DNA of 64,000 nt. Origin: an uncultured Actinomycetes bacterium (GTDB lineage Bacteria > Actinomycetota > Thermoleophilia > Gaiellales > Gaiellaceae). The stretch lies in the NCBI GenBank assembly GCA_963785895.1, contig CAWAXB010000006.1, forward strand, positions 24,062 to 88,061, in the 5' to 3' direction. Position numbers and translations under genes: made by a program. The notes beneath the pieces are model-generated. The model did not search any database. It saw only the letters and a program-made list of their open reading frames with translations, and had not been told where the DNA came from. This document shows, one piece after another, positions 11,420-61,781 of this stretch (position 1 is the stretch's first letter; each line of letters begins with the position of its first letter).

Positions 11420-11428
11420 GCGGCGAGT

Positions 11429-11638
11429 CTACTCGGCCGTGCCGTCGACTTTGCCTTCAGCATCGTCTTCCTCAGCACGGCGCTGCTCGTCGTATCGGCG
11501 CCAGCGCTGCTCGTCGGGATCGTCCTTGGCGCCGCGCAGGATGAACCAGGTGAGCCAGAGGGCGATCACGACCGGGACGAAGATCGAGAGGCCGACGATT
11601 ATCTCGGTCCAGGTGCTCGCGGTGTACGCGAGCGTCAC
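11429..11638 (-). CDS. small single-TM protein with charged C-terminal tail, embedded between purA and purD
   Basis: VTLAYTASTWTEIIVGLSIFVPVVIALWLTWFILRGAKDDPDEQRWRRYDEQRRAEEDDAEGKVDGTAE. The GTG overlaps the purA stop and the ORF stops 9 nt before purD. Confidence 0.5.
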   Translation of the reverse strand: MTLAYTASTWTEIIVGLSIFVPVVIALWLTWFILRGAKDDPDEQRWRRYDEQRRAEEDDAEGKVDGTAE

Positions 11639-12929: not shown

Positions 12930-13142
12930 TCAGACAGCCGCGAGGTGCCGCGCGACGCGGCGCACGACGATGCGGTGACCGCGCGGGCAGGTCATGAAGC
13001 CGACGTCCGCGTCGCGGCGGAGCGTGCCGTGAACGACGAGCGAATCGGCGGCGAACGATTCGCGCAGCGACAGGCATGCCTCGCACGGTTCATCGAAGGT
13101 CGTCGCCTCCGGCCCGAGCCAGACATGCTGCCGCTGGATCAT
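12930..13142 (-). CDS. small CxxC...CxxGH zinc-ribbon-like protein (paralog 2)
   Basis: MIQRQHVWLGPEATTFDEPCEACLSLRESFAADSLVVHGTLRRDADVGFMTCPRGHRIVVRRVARHLAAV. The ATG overlaps the stop of paralog 1 (ATGA). Confidence 0.55.
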   Translation of the reverse strand: MIQRQHVWLGPEATTFDEPCEACLSLRESFAADSLVVHGTLRRDADVGFMTCPRGHRIVVRRVARHLAAV

Positions 13143-13393
13143 GCGATCTGCAGCTGGCGCTCGTCGGGACGGGTGAGTGCGGGCGGGCGCTCGATACGCC
13201 TGAGCACGATCTCGTGCCCCGCCGCGCAACGGACGTGCGAGCTCTCGGTGTCGATCGGGATCGAGCCGCGCACCGCGGCTCCGGCGAGTGCGTCCGCGAA
13301 GAGCGCGCCCGAGACTCGCGCAGCCTCCAGGCACGGCTCGCAGAGGCAGGAGAAGACCGTCGCCGACGGAGTCAGCCAGACGACCGTCCTCAC
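13139..13393 (-). CDS. small CxxC...CxxGH zinc-ribbon-like protein (paralog 1)
   Basis: VRTVVWLTPSATVFSCLCEPCLEAARVSG...SSHVRCAAGHEIVLRRIERP. The GTG overlaps the dnaB stop (GTGA). It shares VWL-P-AT-F---CE-CL and C--GH-IV-RR with paralog 2. Confidence 0.55.
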   Translation of the reverse strand: MRTVVWLTPSATVFSCLCEPCLEAARVSGALFADALAGAAVRGSIPIDTESSHVRCAAGHEIVLRRIERPPALTRPDERQLQIA

Positions 13394-14745
13394 GAGCCGG
13401 CCGCCAGGTCGGCGAACTTCGCGTACCGCTTCTGGAAGGCGAGCTTCTCGATCCCCGTTGCGCCGTTTCTGTGCTTGGCAAGCACCAGCTCGGCGATTCC
13501 CGCCGACTCGGTGTCCTCCGGGTTGTAGTACTCGTCGCGGTAGACGAACATCACGAGGTCCGCGTCCTGCTCGATCGAACCACTTTCACGAAGGTCGGAG
13601 AGGATGGGCCGCTTGTCGTGGCGCTGCTCGACCGCGCGTGAGAGCTGCGAGAGGGCGACGATCGGCACCTCGAGGTCGCGGGCGAGCACCTTCAGCGAGC
13701 GTGAGATCTGCGACACCTCCTGGACGCGGTTCTCGACCGAGGTACCGCTCGTCATCAGCTGCAGGTAGTCGACGATCACGAGGCCGAGGTCGGGCGCCTT
13801 CATCTTGAGGCGCCGTAGCTTCGACCGGATCTCCATCATCGTGATCGAGCCGGTGTCGTCGACGTAGATCGGCGCCTTCGCGAGCTTGTCGCAGGCGGCC
13901 GTGAGTCGCGGCCAGTCGTCGACGGCGAGCTTGCCGGTGCGCAGCCGTTGCGACTCGACCTTGCCCTCCGCGCACATCAGGCGCTGCGTCACCTCGGCCT
14001 TGGACATCTCGAGGGTGAACAGCGCGACAGGCGTTTCGTGGCGGACGGCGACATTCGCCGCCATGCAGAGGGCGAGCGCCGACTTTCCCATCGACGGGCG
14101 GGCCGCGATGATGATCAGGTTGCCGCCCTGGAAGCCGGAGGTCAGGCGGTCGAGGTCGCGGAAGCCGGATGGTGTGCCGGTGATGTCGCTGCCGGCTTCG
14201 TAGAGCTTGGTGATCGTCTCGAACGATTCCTTGAGCAGGTCGTCGATGTGCGCGAACTGAGTTGTGACCCGCTGCTGGCTGAGGGCGAAGATGGCGCTCT
14301 CGGCGCGGTCGATCAGCTCGACCACCTCGCCGGGCCGGTCGAAGCCGAGCTGGGCGATCTCCTGGCCGGCGCGGATCAGGCCGCGCAGGGTCGCCATATC
14401 GCGGACGATGCGCGCGTAGTGCGCGACGTTCGACGCGGCCGGGACGAGCGCCGCCAGTTCCTGGATCTTCTCCTGGCCTCCGATTGCCTCGAGCTGCTGC
14501 AGCTTGTCGAGCTCGTCCGCCAGGGTGATCGCGTCGACCGGGTCGCCCTTGGTGTAGAGCCCGACGGCGGCCCGGTAGATCATGCCGTGCGTCTCCCGGT
14601 AGAAGTCGCTCGCGTCGAGGATCTCCGCGACGGCCCCGATCGCCCCCGGGGAGAGCATCATCGCGCCGAGGACCGACTCCTCTGCATCGAGGTTCTGTGG
14701 CGGCAGGGGAGCGGTGCGGACGGGTGCTTCGGTCTGTGCGCTCAT
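13390..14745 (-). CDS. dnaB: replicative DNA helicase DnaB
   Basis: PPQNLDAEESVLGAMML...GFRDLDRLTSGFQGGNLIIIAARPSMGKSALAL...VIVDYLQLM...SQLSRAVEQR...DLRESGSIEQDADLVMFVYRDEYY. ATG at 14745. No intein. Confidence 0.93.
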   Translation of the reverse strand: MSAQTEAPVRTAPLPPQNLDAEESVLGAMMLSPGAIGAVAEILDASDFYRETHGMIYRAAVGLYTKGDPVDAITLADELDKLQQLEAIGGQEKIQELAALVPAASNVAHYARIVRDMATLRGLIRAGQEIAQLGFDRPGEVVELIDRAESAIFALSQQRVTTQFAHIDDLLKESFETITKLYEAGSDITGTPSGFRDLDRLTSGFQGGNLIIIAARPSMGKSALALCMAANVAVRHETPVALFTLEMSKAEVTQRLMCAEGKVESQRLRTGKLAVDDWPRLTAACDKLAKAPIYVDDTGSITMMEIRSKLRRLKMKAPDLGLVIVDYLQLMTSGTSVENRVQEVSQISRSLKVLARDLEVPIVALSQLSRAVEQRHDKRPILSDLRESGSIEQDADLVMFVYRDEYYNPEDTESAGIAELVLAKHRNGATGIEKLAFQKRYAKFADLAAGS

Positions 14746-14794
14746 CCGATCGCCATCCAATCGCGAGTCCGGCGCGGGCGCCAGTGGCCGTGCG

Positions 14795-14969
14795 TGTGGA
14801 CAACCCGGGGCGTTCGGGCCTGCCCGATGCGGCTTTCCACAGGTTCGGGGCCTTCTCCACGGCGTCTTCCACACTGGGCGAACATACGTTCGTCCAGTCT
14901 TCCACAGCTCCCGGCTGTTGTCCACGCGTGGACGGGGAGTGTCCACAGGAGGGAGGGCTTTTGTCCACA
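14795..14969. promoter_or_regulatory. cluster of nine DnaA-box-like 9-mers upstream of dnaB
   Basis: TGTGGACAA 14795-14803 (reverse orientation, 9/9 to TTGTCCACA), CTTTCCACA 14833-14841, TTCTCCACG 14853-14861, TCTTCCACA 14865-14873 and 14898-14906. TTGTCCACG 14918-14926 has an inverted partner within the palindrome GTCCACGCGTGGAC 14920-14933. GTGTCCACA 14939-14947 and TTGTCCACA 14961-14969 (9/9). Confidence 0.7.
14879..14892. promoter_or_regulatory. LexA (Cheo-type) SOS box upstream of dnaB
   Basis: CGAACATACGTTCG fits CGAAC-N4-GTTCG perfectly. With flanks, GCGAACATACGTTCGTC differs at one spacer base from the lexA operator GCGAACACACGTTCGTC at 37931-37947. Confidence 0.7.
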
Positions 14970-15022
14970 GCTGCCGCTGGCTGAAGAATCGGCCGCAGTT
15001 TGCGGGATGATTCGTCGCGCCG

Positions 15023-15334: not shown

Positions 15335-15976
15335 CTACTCGGTCGGGAGGTCGTCCTCCACGTGCTCGGCCGGCTCCGCCTCGACTTCGACCAGCTCTGC
15401 TTCGACCAGCTCTGCCTCGACCAGTTCCGCGGCGGTTCCCTGCACCTCGGCGGCTTCCCGTCCTTCGGCTTCCGTGGCCTCGACCTCGGCGGCCTCGAGC
15501 GCGGCGAGCTCCTCCTCGGGTGGCAACTCCTCGCCTTCGGGGGCGACGACGAGCTTGAGCTGGGCGGTCACGTCGGCGAACAGCTCGACGGGCACGGTGT
15601 AGCGGCCGATCCGCTTGACCGTGTCCATCTGCACCTTGCGGCGGTCGACCCGCACCTTCTCCTGCTCCCAGAGCCGGTCGGCCAGGTTCGTCGCGGTGAC
15701 CGAGCCGAACAGCGAGCCCGTGGGGCCGGCCGTGACGTCGAAACGCAGCTCGAGCGCCTCGAGACGGTTCGCGATCGCACGCGCCTCGTCGACGGTCTTC
15801 GCCTCGTGGCGTGCCCGCAGCGCGTCGCGCTTCTCGATCTCGCGCACGATCGCCGGTGAAGCGACCTCAGCCAGCCCGCGCGGCAGCAGGAAGTTGCGCG
15901 CGTAGCCACGGGCGACGTTGACGACCTCGCCACGCAGGCCGAGCGTGTCGACGTCCTGCTTGAGAACGACGTCCAT
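15335..15976 (-). CDS. rplI: 50S ribosomal protein L9 with about 65-aa acidic repeat-containing C-terminal extension
   Basis: MDVVLKQDVDTLGLRGEVVNVARGYARNFLLPRGLA..., then EELPPEEELAALEAAEVEATEAEGREAAEVQGTAAELVEAELVEAELVEVEAEPAEHVEDDLPTE. Confidence 0.9.
   Translation of the reverse strand: MDVVLKQDVDTLGLRGEVVNVARGYARNFLLPRGLAEVASPAIVREIEKRDALRARHEAKTVDEARAIANRLEALELRFDVTAGPTGSLFGSVTATNLADRLWEQEKVRVDRRKVQMDTVKRIGRYTVPVELFADVTAQLKLVVAPEGEELPPEEELAALEAAEVEATEAEGREAAEVQGTAAELVEAELVEAELVEVEAEPAEHVEDDLPTE
15385..15429. repeat. 15-bp tandem repeat x3 inside the rplI 3' region (encodes AELVE repeats)
   Basis: CTTCGACCAGCTCTG at 15385-15399 and 15400-15414 (identical), followed by the degenerate copy CCTCGACCAGTTCCG at 15415-15429. 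Confidence 0.8.
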
Positions 15977-15981
15977 GGCTC

Positions 15982-16263
15982 CTACTTCTCGCCGACGTAG
16001 GGGAGGAGGGCGAGCTCGCGTGCGCGCTTCACGGCGACGGCCACCTGGCGCTGATGGCGCCGGCAGGCTCCGCTGATCCGGCGGTTGCGGATCTTGCCCT
16101 TCTCCGACACGTAACGCCGGAGCTCGTTGATGTTCTTGTAGTCGACCTCGTCGACCTTCGACTTGCAGAAGAAGCAGGACTTGCGGCGGCCGGGCCCGGT
16201 GGGGGCGTTGCGCTTGCCCCTGCTCGAGCTGCGGTCACGATCGGAATTCTTCGGTGCAGGCAA
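15982..16263 (-). CDS. rpsR: 30S ribosomal protein S18
   Basis: [67 protein letters not shown] start at 16263 is preceded by AAGGAGAG, which overlaps the ssb stop. Confidence 0.88.
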
Positions 16264-16273
16264 TTCTCTCTCC

Positions 16274-16708
16274 TTAGAACGGGATGTCGTCGTCGGAGCC
16301 CTGGAAGTCGGCATCCGAGCCACTCGTGGCGCTTGCGGGCACGAACTGGTTGGCGCCGCCGCCTTCGCTGTCGCCGCGGCTGTCGAGGAACTGAACGGAC
16401 TGGGCGACGATCTCGACCTTCGAGCGCTTCGAGCCGTCCTGGGCCTCCCATGACGACCAGTCGAGGCGGCCGTCGACGCCGATTCGGCGTCCCTTGGCGA
16501 GGTGGTTCATCAGCATCTCGGCCTGGCCGCCAAAGACCTTGACGTCGAAGAAGTTCGGCTTGTCGCTCCAGTTGCCGGCAGCGTCCTTCATCCGGCCGTT
16601 GACGGCGACGCCCAGCTGCAGCACGGACGTCCCGGACGGCAGCGAGCGCAGCTCCGGGTCACGTGTGAGACGCCCGACGATCGTTACGCGATTGATGTCA
16701 CCAGCCAT
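16274..16708 (-). CDS. ssb: single-stranded DNA-binding protein
   Basis: [21 protein letters not shown]...[12 protein letters not shown]..., Gly-rich linker and acidic tip DDDIPF. Confidence 0.92.
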
Positions 16709-16741: not shown

Positions 16742-17125
16742 CTACTCCGCAGCTTCGCCGCTGTCATCGGAGGGATCGGACGCGCCCGCGCCGGTCGTGG
16801 CCGCAGGGGCCGGCGCCGGAGCCTTCGTGTGGCCGACGCCCTTGACGCGGCGGTACGCGCCGTGGCGCATCACACCGTCGGTGATCTTGAGCACGCGCGT
16901 GATCTCGGCCAGCGTCTCCGCCGGGGCCGTGAACAGGACGAGGTGGTAGACCGCCTCACCCTTGTGGTCGATCTCGTAGGCGAGGCGGCGCCGGCCCCAC
17001 GGCTCATGGCCGTCCCAGGAGCCTTGCGCGCCCTCGACCGAGTCGCGGATGCGCTGGATGATGTCGTCCCCACGCTCTTCAGCGACCTCGGGGTCCAGCA
17101 ACAGCATGATTTCGTAGTCGTTCAC
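16742..17125 (-). CDS. rpsF: 30S ribosomal protein S6
   Basis: MNDYEIMLLLDPEVAEE...WGRRRLAYEIDHKGEAVYHLVLF. SD GAAGGAGG lies upstream. Confidence 0.9.
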   Translation of the reverse strand: MNDYEIMLLLDPEVAEERGDDIIQRIRDSVEGAQGSWDGHEPWGRRRLAYEIDHKGEAVYHLVLFTAPAETLAEITRVLKITDGVMRHGAYRRVKGVGHTKAPAPAPAATTGAGASDPSDDSGEAAE

Positions 17126-27531: not shown

Positions 27532-27623
27532 CGGAGCGGCCCCAGAGTCGAACTGAGCAAGCGTGGGGTTGCCACGCCGGGTCGGCTTTGAAGGCCGACT
27601 GGGCCACCGGGCCCCGCCGCTCC
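27532..27623 (-). tRNA. selC: tRNA-Sec (anticodon UCA)
   Basis: GGAGCGGC/GCCGCTCC forms an 8-bp acceptor stem. D-arm GGGCC-CGGT-GGCCC. Anticodon arm GTCGGC-CTTCAAA-GCCGAC. Long variable arm GCGTGG-CAAC-CCACGC. T-arm CTCAG-TTCGACT-CTGGG. Discriminator G. No encoded CCA. Confidence 0.9.
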
Positions 27624-27642
27624 CTGCGCCGCCGACTGTACG

Positions 27643-29356
27643 TCACCTTGTCTCGTCGCTACGGCCGCGGCGCAGGACGCGGACGTCGCCGCGGCGCAGC
27701 GTCAGCCCGTCCGAGTCGTACCGCTCGAGCAGCAACTGCGCCGTGCGGCGGCCGACGCCGAGCGCGTCGCGGAACGACGGCAAGTGTGATCGGGTCGAGC
27801 GTCCGCAGCGTTGCGACGCCGCGTTCGTAGAGCTGCGGGGAGACGGCGAGCCCGTCGCCGACGCGGCGCAGCCGGCCGCGCTCCTCCAGGAAGGCCGCGA
27901 GCTGCTTGTCGCCCACCTTCACCGTCTCCTGCTGTGCGAGCTGCTGTTCGAGCTCCGCGGCCGCATCCGCGTGTTCGCCAAGGGCGGCGGACGCTCCCGG
28001 CAGGAATGCCTTGGCGTCGCGGCGCTCGAGCTGCAGGAGATTGAGCACGTGCGGTGCCCAGGGCTCGTTCGGCAGCAGCTCGGCGAGCGGGACGCCCGGG
28101 TCGAGCGGATTCGCGCGCGCTCGATCGCGCGAGTCGCGCTCGTACCTCCGTGCGGAGCGTCGAGAGCCACTGCGTTGGAGAAGTAGTGCTCTCCGGCGGC
28201 GCGGACCGCAGCGAGGCCCTGCGCCAGCTCGATCGGTGCGAGCACGCCGCGCGCCTGCAGCTCACGGCCGGAAACCGGCGCGTGCACCAGCATGCCCACG
28301 ATCTCGGTGGGATCGCCGCGCTCGAGCACCGTGAGACGCTCGAGGTCCAAGCCGCGGGGCGGCGCCGGGTCGAGCACGATGCCCCCACCGACGGTCGTCT
28401 CGGCGCGCAGCACGACACGGTCGCCGCGCGCGGCCGCCACCGGCTCGACGAGCCGGAGTTGTGCGTACGCGCCACTCCGCGTGAGCCGGGCCTGCACCGC
28501 CTTCGTGCCGGCGTGCACGGTGACGGCGGCGGGGATCTGCGCGAGCTCGGTGAGCTTCACGTCCAGCCGGTACGACACGGGATAGTGGCCCGACTCGACG
28601 AGCACGTCGCCGCGCGCGAGCTGCTGCCGCTCCAACGCGGGCAGGTTGACCGCGACGCGCTGTCCGGCCTCCGCCTCCGGTGACGGCGGCGTCGTGCACG
28701 TGCACGCTGCGCACGCGAACGGTGCGGCCGCTCGGCTCGACGCGCAGCACGTCGCCGGGCGCGATGCGTCCCGACCAGAGCGTTCCGGTGGCGATCGTGC
28801 CGACGCCCTGCAGCGTGAACACGCGGTCGACATACAGGCGCGTTGCACGCTCGGCGTCTCGTTCCGCCGCGGGCACGCGCGCAAGGGCGGCGCGCAGCTC
28901 GTCGAGCCCGGCGCCGGTCTTCGCCGAGACGGCGACCACTTCGGCGCCCGGGACGAGCTCGCGCGCCTCGTCGATCGCGAGCGCGAGCGTCTCTGCGTCG
29001 ACCGCATCGGCTTTCGTGACCGCGACGACACCCTGGTCGACGCCGAGCAGCCGCAGGACGGCGAGATGCTCGTGCGTCTGCGGGCGCGCGCCCTCCTGCG
29101 CGTCGATCACGAGCAGGAAGAGGTCGATGCCGGTGGCTCCGGCGATCATCGTGCGCACGAACCGCTCGTGGCCGGGCACGTCGACGAGCGAGAGGCGTCG
29201 CCCGTCCGGCAGCTCGAGCGGGGCGTAGCCCAGGTCGATCGAGATTCCGCGCGCCTGCTCTTCGGGCAGCCGGTCGGTGTCCTTGCCCGTGAGCGCGCGC
29301 ACGAGCCACGTCTTGCCGTGGTCGATGTGGCCGGCCGTGCCGACCGTCAGCGGCAT
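27643..29356 (-). pseudogene. selB: selenocysteine-specific elongation factor SelB, at least 3 frameshifts as assembled
   Basis: [24 protein letters not shown]...DVPGHERF...VAVTKAD. Domains continue in two other frames (ORFs 27919-29031 and 27659-28048), plus a last shift to the tail FRDALGVGRRTAQLLLERYDSDGLTLRRGD. Confidence 0.85.
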
Positions 29357-37770: not shown

Positions 37771-37855
37771 GCGCTGGTGGCGGAATTGGTAGACGCGCTA
37801 GGTTGAGGGCCTAGTGGCCATTGCGGCCGTGGAGGTTCAAGTCCTCTCCAGCGCA
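37771..37855 (+). tRNA. tRNA-Leu (anticodon GAG)
   Basis: GCGCTGG.../...CCAGCGC acceptor stem, anticodon arm CTAGG-TTGAGGG-CCTAG, long variable arm, T-loop GGTTCAAGTCC. Confidence 0.9.
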
Positions 37856-37862
37856 CTGAGGA

Positions 37863-37897: not shown

Positions 37898-37926
37898 TTG
37901 ACGGCGTCCGGAGGAGTCTCTACTCT
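37898..37926 (+). promoter_or_regulatory. lexA promoter
   Basis: TTGACG (37898-37903), a 17-nt spacer, then TACTCT (37921-37926). The SOS box starts 5 nt downstream. Confidence 0.6.
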
Positions 37927-37931
37927 GAGAG

Positions 37932-37945
37932 CGAACACACGTTCG
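37932..37945. promoter_or_regulatory. LexA operator (Cheo-type SOS box) of lexA
   Basis: CGAACACACGTTCG is a perfect CGAAC-N4-GTTCG, 30 nt upstream of the lexA GTG. Confidence 0.85.
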
Positions 37946-37974: not shown

Positions 37975-38604
37975 GTGCTCACCGCCCGTCAACAGGAGAT
38001 CTGGAACTTTCTCGTCGAGTACGTCGACCGGCACGGCTATCCGCCGACCGTGCGCGAGATCGGGGAGCAGGTCGGGCTTGCGTCGCCCTCCACGGTGCAC
38101 GCGCACCTTGCGAACCTCGAACGGGCGGGCCTGCTGCGCCGCGATCCGACAAAGCCACGCGCCCTCGAGCTGATCGGTCGCGAACGCCGTGAAGCCCTGC
38201 CGGCCGAGCAGCACGAGCAGGTCGACGTCGCACGCCTTCCACTTGTCGGTGAGATCGCCGCCGGCGGCCCGCTGCTCGCCGAGCAGAACATCGAGGACTA
38301 CCTGCCGATGCCGGCGTCCACCAAGGGCGATTTTCTCGTCCGCGTCAAGGGCGAGTCGATGATCGATGCGGGCATCCTCGACGGAGACCTCGTGATCGTG
38401 CAGCGTGCGCAGACCGCTCGGGACGGCGAGATCGTCGTCGCGCTTGCCGGCGACGACGAGTCCGCCGACGAGGCGACGGTCAAGACCTTCTACCGCGAGC
38501 GTGACCGCATCCGGCTGCAGCCCGAGAACTCGACGATGGAGCCGATCTATGCGGAGCACGTCCAGATCCTCGGGCGCGTCGTAGGAGTCTTCCGGGAGCT
38601 CTAG
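37975..38604 (+). CDS. lexA: LexA repressor
   Basis: LTARQQEIWNFLVEYVDRHGYPPTVREIGEQVGLASPSTVHAHLANLERAGLL, cleavage site VGEIAAGGP, and S...K peptidase motifs (KGESMIDAGI...VKTF). Confidence 0.93.
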   Translation: MLTARQQEIWNFLVEYVDRHGYPPTVREIGEQVGLASPSTVHAHLANLERAGLLRRDPTKPRALELIGRERREALPAEQHEQVDVARLPLVGEIAAGGPLLAEQNIEDYLPMPASTKGDFLVRVKGESMIDAGILDGDLVIVQRAQTARDGEIVVALAGDDESADEATVKTFYRERDRIRLQPENSTMEPIYAEHVQILGRVVGVFREL

Positions 38605-61727: not shown

Positions 61728-61781
61728 TTTTCCACTGGCTGTGGACAATCACCACAAAGGGTGACGTCGATCTGTGGAGAA
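61728..61781. promoter_or_regulatory. three DnaA-box-like 9-mers in a low-GC intergenic region
   Basis: TTTTCCACT 61728-61736, TGTGGACAA 61740-61748 (9/9, reverse) and TGTGGAGAA 61773-61781. Confidence 0.3.

Follow-up and report, generated by a model that had tools for sequence, protein, structure and literature searches.

Introduction

In mycobacteria, the gap upstream of dnaB, the gene of the replicative helicase, is a major site of binding by the initiator protein DnaA. In vitro affinity sequencing in Mycobacterium tuberculosis gave five top DnaA sites, including 'Rv0057 (upstream of dnaB)', and chromatin immunoprecipitation sequencing (ChIP-seq) of DnaA in M. smegmatis returned the same five (Hicks et al. 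2020, PMC7738170), with dnaB-rplI as the top peak at 225-fold versus 44-fold for oriC (Table S9, PMC7738170). In the M. tuberculosis DnaA I282T mutant, DnaA shows reduced binding to the dnaB promoter, and dnaB is under-expressed (PMC7738170). This promoter also carries an SOS-box motif, where the ChIP signal of LexA stays below threshold (Smollett et al. 2012, PMC3381160), and M. tuberculosis dnaB is damage-induced in a partly RecA-dependent manner (PMC3381160; Brzostek et al. 2021, PMC8151990). WhiA and WhiB2 have been described as further activators of the same promoter (2026 paper). The 9-mer TTGTCCACA is a high-affinity DnaA box in both M. tuberculosis and Streptomyces coelicolor (PMC4285127). 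Here we analyse the 277-bp gap upstream of dnaB in a 64,000-nucleotide stretch of DNA (hereafter the window) from an uncultured actinobacterium of the family Gaiellaceae, class Thermoleophilia (assembly GCA_963785895.1, contig CAWAXB010000006.1, positions 24,062 to 88,061).

Clusters of DnaA boxes are also found away from oriC. The datA locus of Escherichia coli is described as such a cluster, which curbs initiation, and D78 as its S. coelicolor counterpart. datA requires IHF and promotes the hydrolysis of DnaA-bound ATP. Non-oriC clusters are likewise described as curbing initiation in S. coelicolor and Bacillus subtilis (PMC5742627, PMC3245932, PMC3479198). DnaA binding upstream of dnaB in Caulobacter is taken here as it is cited in PMC7738170.

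The element in the window is the Gaiellaceae version of the already described actinobacterial dnaB control region. We consider it probable that the gap is a dnaB promoter region controlled by DnaA and LexA, and possibly also a DnaA sink.

A phased array of DnaA-box-like sites around a LexA-type palindrome

The features of the gap are given below from the distal to the dnaB-proximal end. Mismatches are counted against TTGTCCACA, and positions with a sign refer to the putative dnaB transcription start discussed further on.

14746-15022, minus strand: control region, 277 bp, non-coding, between a 97-amino-acid (97-aa) open reading frame (ORF) and dnaB
14961-14969, plus strand: DnaA-box-like TTGTCCACA, 9/9, farthest from dnaB, at about -90
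14939-14947, plus strand: DnaA-box-like GTGTCCACA, 1 mismatch
14927-14935, minus strand: inverted partner CCGTCCACG, weak, 3 mismatches, outside the 2-mismatch limit
14918-14926, plus strand: DnaA-box-like TTGTCCACG, 1 mismatch, half of the palindrome GTCCACGCGTGGAC (14920-14933)
14898-14906, plus strand: DnaA-box-like TCTTCCACA, first copy, overlapping the expected -35 region (about -24 to -32)
14879-14892, strandless: predicted LexA (SOS) operator at the array centre, CGAACATACGTTCG, a palindrome that matches CGAAC-N4-GTTCG perfectly
14881-14886, minus strand: candidate -10 hexamer TATGTT, within the SOS box
14865-14873, plus strand: DnaA-box-like TCTTCCACA, second copy, at about +2 to +10
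14853-14861, plus strand: DnaA-box-like TTCTCCACG, 2 mismatches, the weakest box
14833-14841, plus strand: DnaA-box-like CTTTCCACA, in the predicted 5' leader
14795-14803, minus strand: DnaA box TTGTCCACA, 9/9 in the dnaB direction (forward strand TGTGGACAA), in the predicted leader about 50 nt before the ATG
13390-14745, minus strand: dnaB, intein-free replicative helicase of 451 aa with the Pfam domains DnaB and DnaB_C

An initial annotation of this DNA had listed nine DnaA-box-like 9-mers in a gap of 277 bp; both the gap size and all nine 9-mers, including the two 9/9 boxes, were recovered where it had placed them. The inverted partner that it had seen in the palindrome is indeed present, at 14927-14935, though as a weak site. 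We defined boxes strictly, as 9-mers with at most 2 mismatches to TTGTCCACA and at most 1 within the TCCACA core, keeping in mind that this consensus is borrowed from other Actinomycetota and may not be the Gaiellaceae lineage's own. So defined, 8 boxes lie within 175 bp of the gap, versus 3 in the runner-up cluster of the window, and the largest count per 200 bp in each of 200 first-order Markov simulations was 2-4. The gap also holds 4 of the 12 matches to TTGTCCACA with at most 1 mismatch in the window, and 6 of its 33 TCCACA matches. The clustering claimed by the initial annotation is thus real, non-random and unique in the window.

Seven of the boxes lie on the same strand (starting at 14833, 14853, 14865, 14898, 14918, 14939 and 14961) and are helically phased (R = 0.93 at a period of 10.7 bp), to a degree reached by about 0.5% of random placements (p ~0.005). 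The 10-mer TGTGGAAGAC occurs as an identical direct repeat on either side of the SOS box, with a distance of 33 bp; its first copy corresponds to box 14898-14906 and its second to box 14865-14873.

The runner-up cluster (61728-61781) comprises TTTTCCACT, TGTGGACAA (9/9) and TGTGGAGAA within 54 bp. It sits in the gap after a gene for a LuxR-type regulator, where GC falls to about 63-65%.

The palindrome and the putative core promoter

The palindrome CGAACATACGTTCG, absent from the list of the initial annotation, fits all ten specified positions of the Gram-positive/actinobacterial SOS consensus CGAAC-N4-GTTCG. The 64-kb window contains two GAAC-N4-GTTC sites only, and the other one lies at the promoter of lexA itself:

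37932-37945, strandless: reference LexA operator CGAACACACGTTCG, at lexA's own promoter
37975-38604, plus strand: lexA, TIGR00498 equivalog (222 bits versus a cut-off of 111)

The lexA product combines a LexA DNA-binding domain with an S24 peptidase domain, and its gene is preceded by a near-consensus promoter (TTGACG at 37898-37903, a 17-nt spacer and TACTCT at 37921-37926). CGAACACACGTTCG lies 5 nt past this -10 hexamer, at the presumed start of transcription, and precedes lexA by about 30 nt. The operators at dnaB and lexA share the CGAAC-N4-GTTCG form and differ in their four central bases; the SOS motif at dnaB is calibrated in this way, since the same box form is found at the genome's own lexA operator. 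A tRNA-Leu(GAG) gene (37771-37856) lies just upstream of the lexA promoter.

At dnaB, the 277-bp gap has a single TA dinucleotide and a single TAnnnT, both in TATGTT. Because of this single TA, we place a putative -10 element at 14886-14881 and a transcription start near 14875. No -35 element is recognisable at this promoter in the window, and its position is occupied by a DnaA box, both in the window and in its relatives. This map would put four boxes 5' of the start and the other four within a leader about 129 nt long. A predicted LexA operator on the sole -10 candidate turns what would be a plain DnaA array into a putative two-input promoter.

Neither a sigma-70 consensus promoter scan nor an intrinsic terminator scan detected anything in the gap. 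An Rfam search of it returned no family, its sole match being meaningless (E = 0.8). A WhiA-type GACAC motif was considered and set aside; it occurs in a single copy in the gap, inside TGTGGACAC, and is not kept in relatives.

Conservation in Gaiellaceae

The initial annotation had proposed an alignment of the dnaB upstream regions of related genomes, and in these the boxes are conserved. The relatives are 80 species-level Gaiellaceae loci from one scan, with DnaB proteins 77-88% identical. Their layout was read from motif-anchored maps, since a multiple alignment of 78 of the upstream regions had too many gaps for column-wise use. Strict boxes number 2-8 per relative (mean 4.6), which amounts to 13.1/kb upstream versus 0.63/kb elsewhere in the loci. 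Matches to TTGTCCACA with at most 1 mismatch are concentrated 200-300 nt upstream of an anchor at codon 14 (PPQNLDAE), where the 80 loci have 139 (17.3/kb versus about 0.05/kb elsewhere). A motif-blind count of 7-mers in the 300 nt upstream ranks TCCACAG first (224 observed versus 0.89 expected, in 76 of 80 loci), with GTCCACA (135 versus 0.57) and TTCCACA (89 versus 0.37) also enriched.

As for the SOS box, 78 of 80 relatives have GAAC-N4-GTTC upstream of dnaB, as a rule at a distance of exactly 144 nt from the codon-14 anchor, and the 27.9 kb of dnaB-upstream DNA contain 78 such sites versus 7 in the other 446 kb. The GAAC and GTTC arms are invariant and the centre is variable. In most relatives, TATACT, TATAAT or TGATAT directly follows the SOS box. 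The boxes occupy constant positions relative to it: one is retained just upstream (-20 bin), and most relatives keep a TTTCCACAC box about 50 nt downstream, the counterpart of window box 14795-14803.

At a finer scale, we aligned the window with L001 and L053, its two closest relatives. Islands of conservation are seen at the SOS box and at the boxes 14939, 14918, 14898, 14833, 14795 and, partly, 14865. Box 14939-14947 is kept as CCTGTGGACA in all three sequences; CGTGGACAA is invariant in box 14918-14926, as is CTGTGGA in box 14833-14841, and boxes 14898-14906 and 14795-14803 are conserved as well.

Further away, the same layout, SOS box included, is found in a more distant locus of Gaiellaceae type (L083, from a DnaB cluster represented by a protein with 65% identity to the window DnaB). 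Two loci with intein-bearing DnaB proteins, 51-52% identical to that of the window (L085 and L087), have 2-4 DnaA-like boxes upstream and CGAAC-N4-GTTCG just 5' of dnaB. L085 comes from a metagenome-assembled genome (MAG) labelled Actinomycetota and keeps the order rpsF-ssb-rpsR-rplI-dnaB; in L087, rplI and dnaB are parted by a divergent cation-efflux gene. Five loci on phage-like or non-actinobacterial contigs (L081, L082, L084, L086 and L088) have neither boxes nor an SOS site at dnaB.

Two contigs from MAGs labelled Gemmatimonadaceae (L009) and Burkholderiales (L019) carry a Gaiellaceae-type dnaB (85% identical) and are probably binning contaminants. L019 has the same upstream architecture of boxes and SOS site; L009 holds just about 200 nt 5' of dnaB, and no box lies within that stretch.

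The gap is non-coding

The dnaB frame is open upstream as far as 15150, so the non-coding status of the gap needed checking. The GC contents at the three codon positions (GC1/GC2/GC3) are 0.66/0.66/0.66 in the gap versus 0.67/0.42/0.92 in dnaB. Among relatives, the frame 5' of the codon-14 anchor is open over anything from 14 to 312 codons, and a conserved dnaB ATG lies about 42 nt before PPQNLDAE. Altogether, the flat codon-position GC, the variable open length and the conserved ATG rule out an N-terminal extension of DnaB through the gap. Region 14746-15022 therefore does not code for protein, and database models with a longer DnaB are annotation artefacts.

Gene neighbourhood

The dnaB gene lies in a co-directional block that includes the following features:

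16742-17125, minus strand: rpsF
16274-16708, minus strand: ssb
within ORF 15982-16323, minus strand: rpsR, start position approximate
15335-15976, minus strand: rplI, ribosomal protein L9
15023-15316, minus strand: 97-aa ORF with two CxxCxGxG motifs, weak DnaJ_CXXCXGXG match (E = 0.017)
13139-13393, minus strand: 84-aa ORF, Cys/His-containing, directly after dnaB

Past the 84-aa ORF, the next genes are purA, purD and purB, also on the minus strand. The gap upstream of dnaB is probably not the only sizeable one in the block, as the initial annotation had it: 215 bp separate purA and purD (11420-11634), and a gap of about 215 bp probably lies ahead of purA. The window DnaB has its best matches, at 77-94% identity, among DnaB proteins of Gaiellaceae/Gaiellales MAGs, which assigns the window to Gaiellaceae.

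The order rplI, gap, dnaB, 84-aa ORF, purA is kept in nearly all 80 relatives, with rplI immediately 5' of the dnaB region in 76 of them. Homologues of the 97-aa ORF are found in 2 of the 80 relatives only (L001 and L053), which makes it a lineage-specific local insertion between rplI and the box array; the array remained on the dnaB side of it.

The 84-aa ORF is present downstream of dnaB in 56 of 80 relatives. Its 4-nt overlap with the dnaB stop codon suggests translational coupling to dnaB, and it may encode a small partner protein of the helicase; searches of Pfam and NCBIfam gave no match. The L9 protein of the window has 213 aa in total, with an acidic C-terminal extension of about 65 aa, and the rplI genes of relatives likewise close with acidic repeat-like tails right before the box array. 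Intein PF14890 is present in some close Gaiellaceae DnaB proteins of 78-83% identity (P0096, P0099, P0102, P0105, P0110 and P0113) and missing from the window DnaB; intein presence is thus variable within the family. Elsewhere in the window, a tRNA-SeC gene (27532-27623, minus strand) adjoins an ORF with a SelB beta-barrel domain (27919-29106, minus strand), and 27532-29106 is a predicted selenocysteine-incorporation locus.

Proposed control of dnaB and alternative explanations

Among the three readings that the initial annotation had offered, direct DnaA control of dnaB fits best, and we propose that it is combined with control by LexA. A LexA dimer on CGAACATACGTTCG would cover the sole -10 candidate and keep dnaB transcription low until DNA damage, when RecA-dependent cleavage of LexA would make more helicase available for replication restart. 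DnaA would occupy the boxes of TTGTCCACA type, about eight in number, that flank the operator on either side, with one of the four upstream boxes at the -35 position and four boxes in the leader. Since seven boxes share their orientation and helical face, we favour a cooperative DnaA oligomer. We also favour DnaA as a positive input, because a box replaces the missing -35 element and because of the mycobacterial mutant data; the net effect suggested by the data on mycobacteria and Caulobacter is a higher expression of dnaB at times of plentiful active DnaA. The array is likely to serve on the side as a DnaA sink, given the very high occupancy in M. smegmatis and the many DnaA molecules that a dense cluster would hold.

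Several observations weigh against joint control by DnaA and LexA as we propose it. The dnaB promoter is positioned by a single TAnnnT without a recognisable -35. Four boxes downstream of the putative start make a classically repressive layout, and the sign of DnaA control is uncertain for this reason. Boxes 14961 and 14853 (2/9) are unconserved even in L001 and L053, and the window differs from most relatives in box number, orientation and spacing. Finally, the box consensus is assumed from other Actinomycetota, and occupancy by DnaA and LexA in Gaiellaceae is predicted from sequence.

It is possible, if not the explanation that we would choose, that the array mainly controls initiation, as a DnaA reservoir or inactivation site like datA, D78 and the B. 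subtilis clusters. Copied early after initiation, it would draw down the free DnaA, and its place beside dnaB would be secondary; such a role is compatible with promoter control. Eight helically phased boxes in 175 bp would suit it, as would the initiation-curbing clusters of S. coelicolor and B. subtilis and the binding of DnaA to the homologous M. smegmatis gap far above oriC. However, box positions are fixed around the core promoter and the LexA operator in the 80 relatives, which points to a promoter function, and the M. tuberculosis DnaA mutant that binds less also under-expresses dnaB. Neither dnaA nor dnaN was found within 13 kb on one side and 49 kb on the other side of the array, and the mycobacterial site has no reported initiation phenotype in the literature examined. 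The mutant data also bear on the sign of the control. An oligomer spread over the promoter and leader boxes could block RNA polymerase, as at dnaA promoters, so that helicase synthesis drops when active DnaA is high. The four boxes past the putative start, the box overlapping the -35 region and the box that relatives retain about 50 nt downstream of the SOS box are in line with repression. We nonetheless regard it as unlikely, since reduced DnaA binding in M. tuberculosis accompanies lower, not higher, dnaB expression, and since the dnaB promoter has no -35 while the lexA promoter has TTGACG, which fits an activator-dependent promoter.

A different question is whether the motifs are DnaA sites at all. 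Immediately past the rplI stop, most relatives have their distal boxes arranged as inverted repeats, such as GTCCACAGGC-N9-GCCTGTGGAC, and the window gap has a somewhat better fold than shuffled versions of it (z = -2.2), as might be expected if the motifs were sites of another factor or terminator hairpins of the ribosomal-protein operon. We hold this to be very improbable: TCCACA is itself conserved as a sequence, in both orientations and also in single boxes downstream of the promoter; it corresponds to the experimentally defined actinobacterial DnaA box; DnaA occupies the homologous mycobacterial gap; and in the window the array is parted from rplI by another gene, with no terminator-like site found in the scan. 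The inverted repeats of relatives L002-L080 lie some 90-130 nt 5' of the SOS box and show one apparent compensatory change (L004 versus L005); they could double as a terminator hairpin of that operon. The initial annotation had also considered an origin-related element, which might be a portion of oriC, a second origin or the remnant of one; this reading has box density alone in its favour, and we give it next to no credence. The gap has a GC content of 66%, with the SOS box itself as its lowest-GC 20-mer (45%), and neither an AT-rich unwinding element nor DnaA-trio repeats were found in it. None of dnaA, dnaN, recF and gyrB is among the annotated genes of the 64-kb window, cumulative GC skew rises steadily through the site without a turn, and the cluster is located on a gene promoter with a LexA operator. 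At its most speculative, the array would be an ancient, phylum-wide DnaA hub whose LexA operator is embedded in a helically phased site of DnaA oligomerisation and in which LexA occupancy gates the DnaA load, an SOS-wired, datA-like brake on initiation. We think this doubtful; if true, DNA damage would alter both helicase supply and the free initiator pool.

Comparison with known systems

No new kind of element is revealed here, as the arrangement is already known from mycobacteria. Strong DnaA occupancy of the rplI-dnaB gap and an SOS motif at dnaB, a feature with experimental support in mycobacteria only, are extended by sequence to a deep-branching and mostly uncultured class. Joint control of helicase supply by the initiator and by DNA damage thus looks old and under selection in Actinomycetota. 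The footprint of 80 genomes is a base-level map of boxes, operator and -10 element that could guide mutagenesis in tractable mycobacteria, and it bears on the role of the top mycobacterial DnaA site, namely dnaB activation versus DnaA sink.

Among the closest described systems is the mycobacterial DnaA site between rplI and dnaB. It shares with the window the phylum, the position and the consensus TTGTCCACA. There, DnaA binding has been measured and tied to dnaB expression, whereas the window site is known from sequence; the window copy belongs to a deep-branching class (Thermoleophilia, Gaiellaceae) and its array tightly brackets a perfect LexA box. The initial annotation had held that such a density of boxes is not that of a helicase promoter. 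The mycobacterial dnaB-rplI gap, as the top DnaA-bound locus (PMC7738170), speaks against this, as does the Caulobacter dnaB region cited in the same work. A LexA-type palindrome in the dnaB promoter is likewise common to M. tuberculosis and the window. The M. tuberculosis site is weak and falls below ChIP peak calling, while the box of the window is a perfect 14-mer, kept in 78 of 80 relatives.

With datA, D78 and the B. subtilis clusters, the array has in common dense high-affinity boxes outside oriC that are able to hold many DnaA molecules. Those clusters are defined by their effect on initiation, whereas the window cluster is built around a promoter. Finally, at Caulobacter dnaB and at autoregulated dnaA promoters, as in the arrangement proposed here, a replication gene has DnaA boxes at its promoter, and its expression is thereby tied to how active the initiator is. 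Caulobacter belongs to another phylum and uses the box variant TGATCCACA, and neither its dnaB promoter nor the autoregulated dnaA promoters have a reported embedded LexA operator, unlike the dnaB promoter region of Gaiellaceae, where the array encloses a predicted one.

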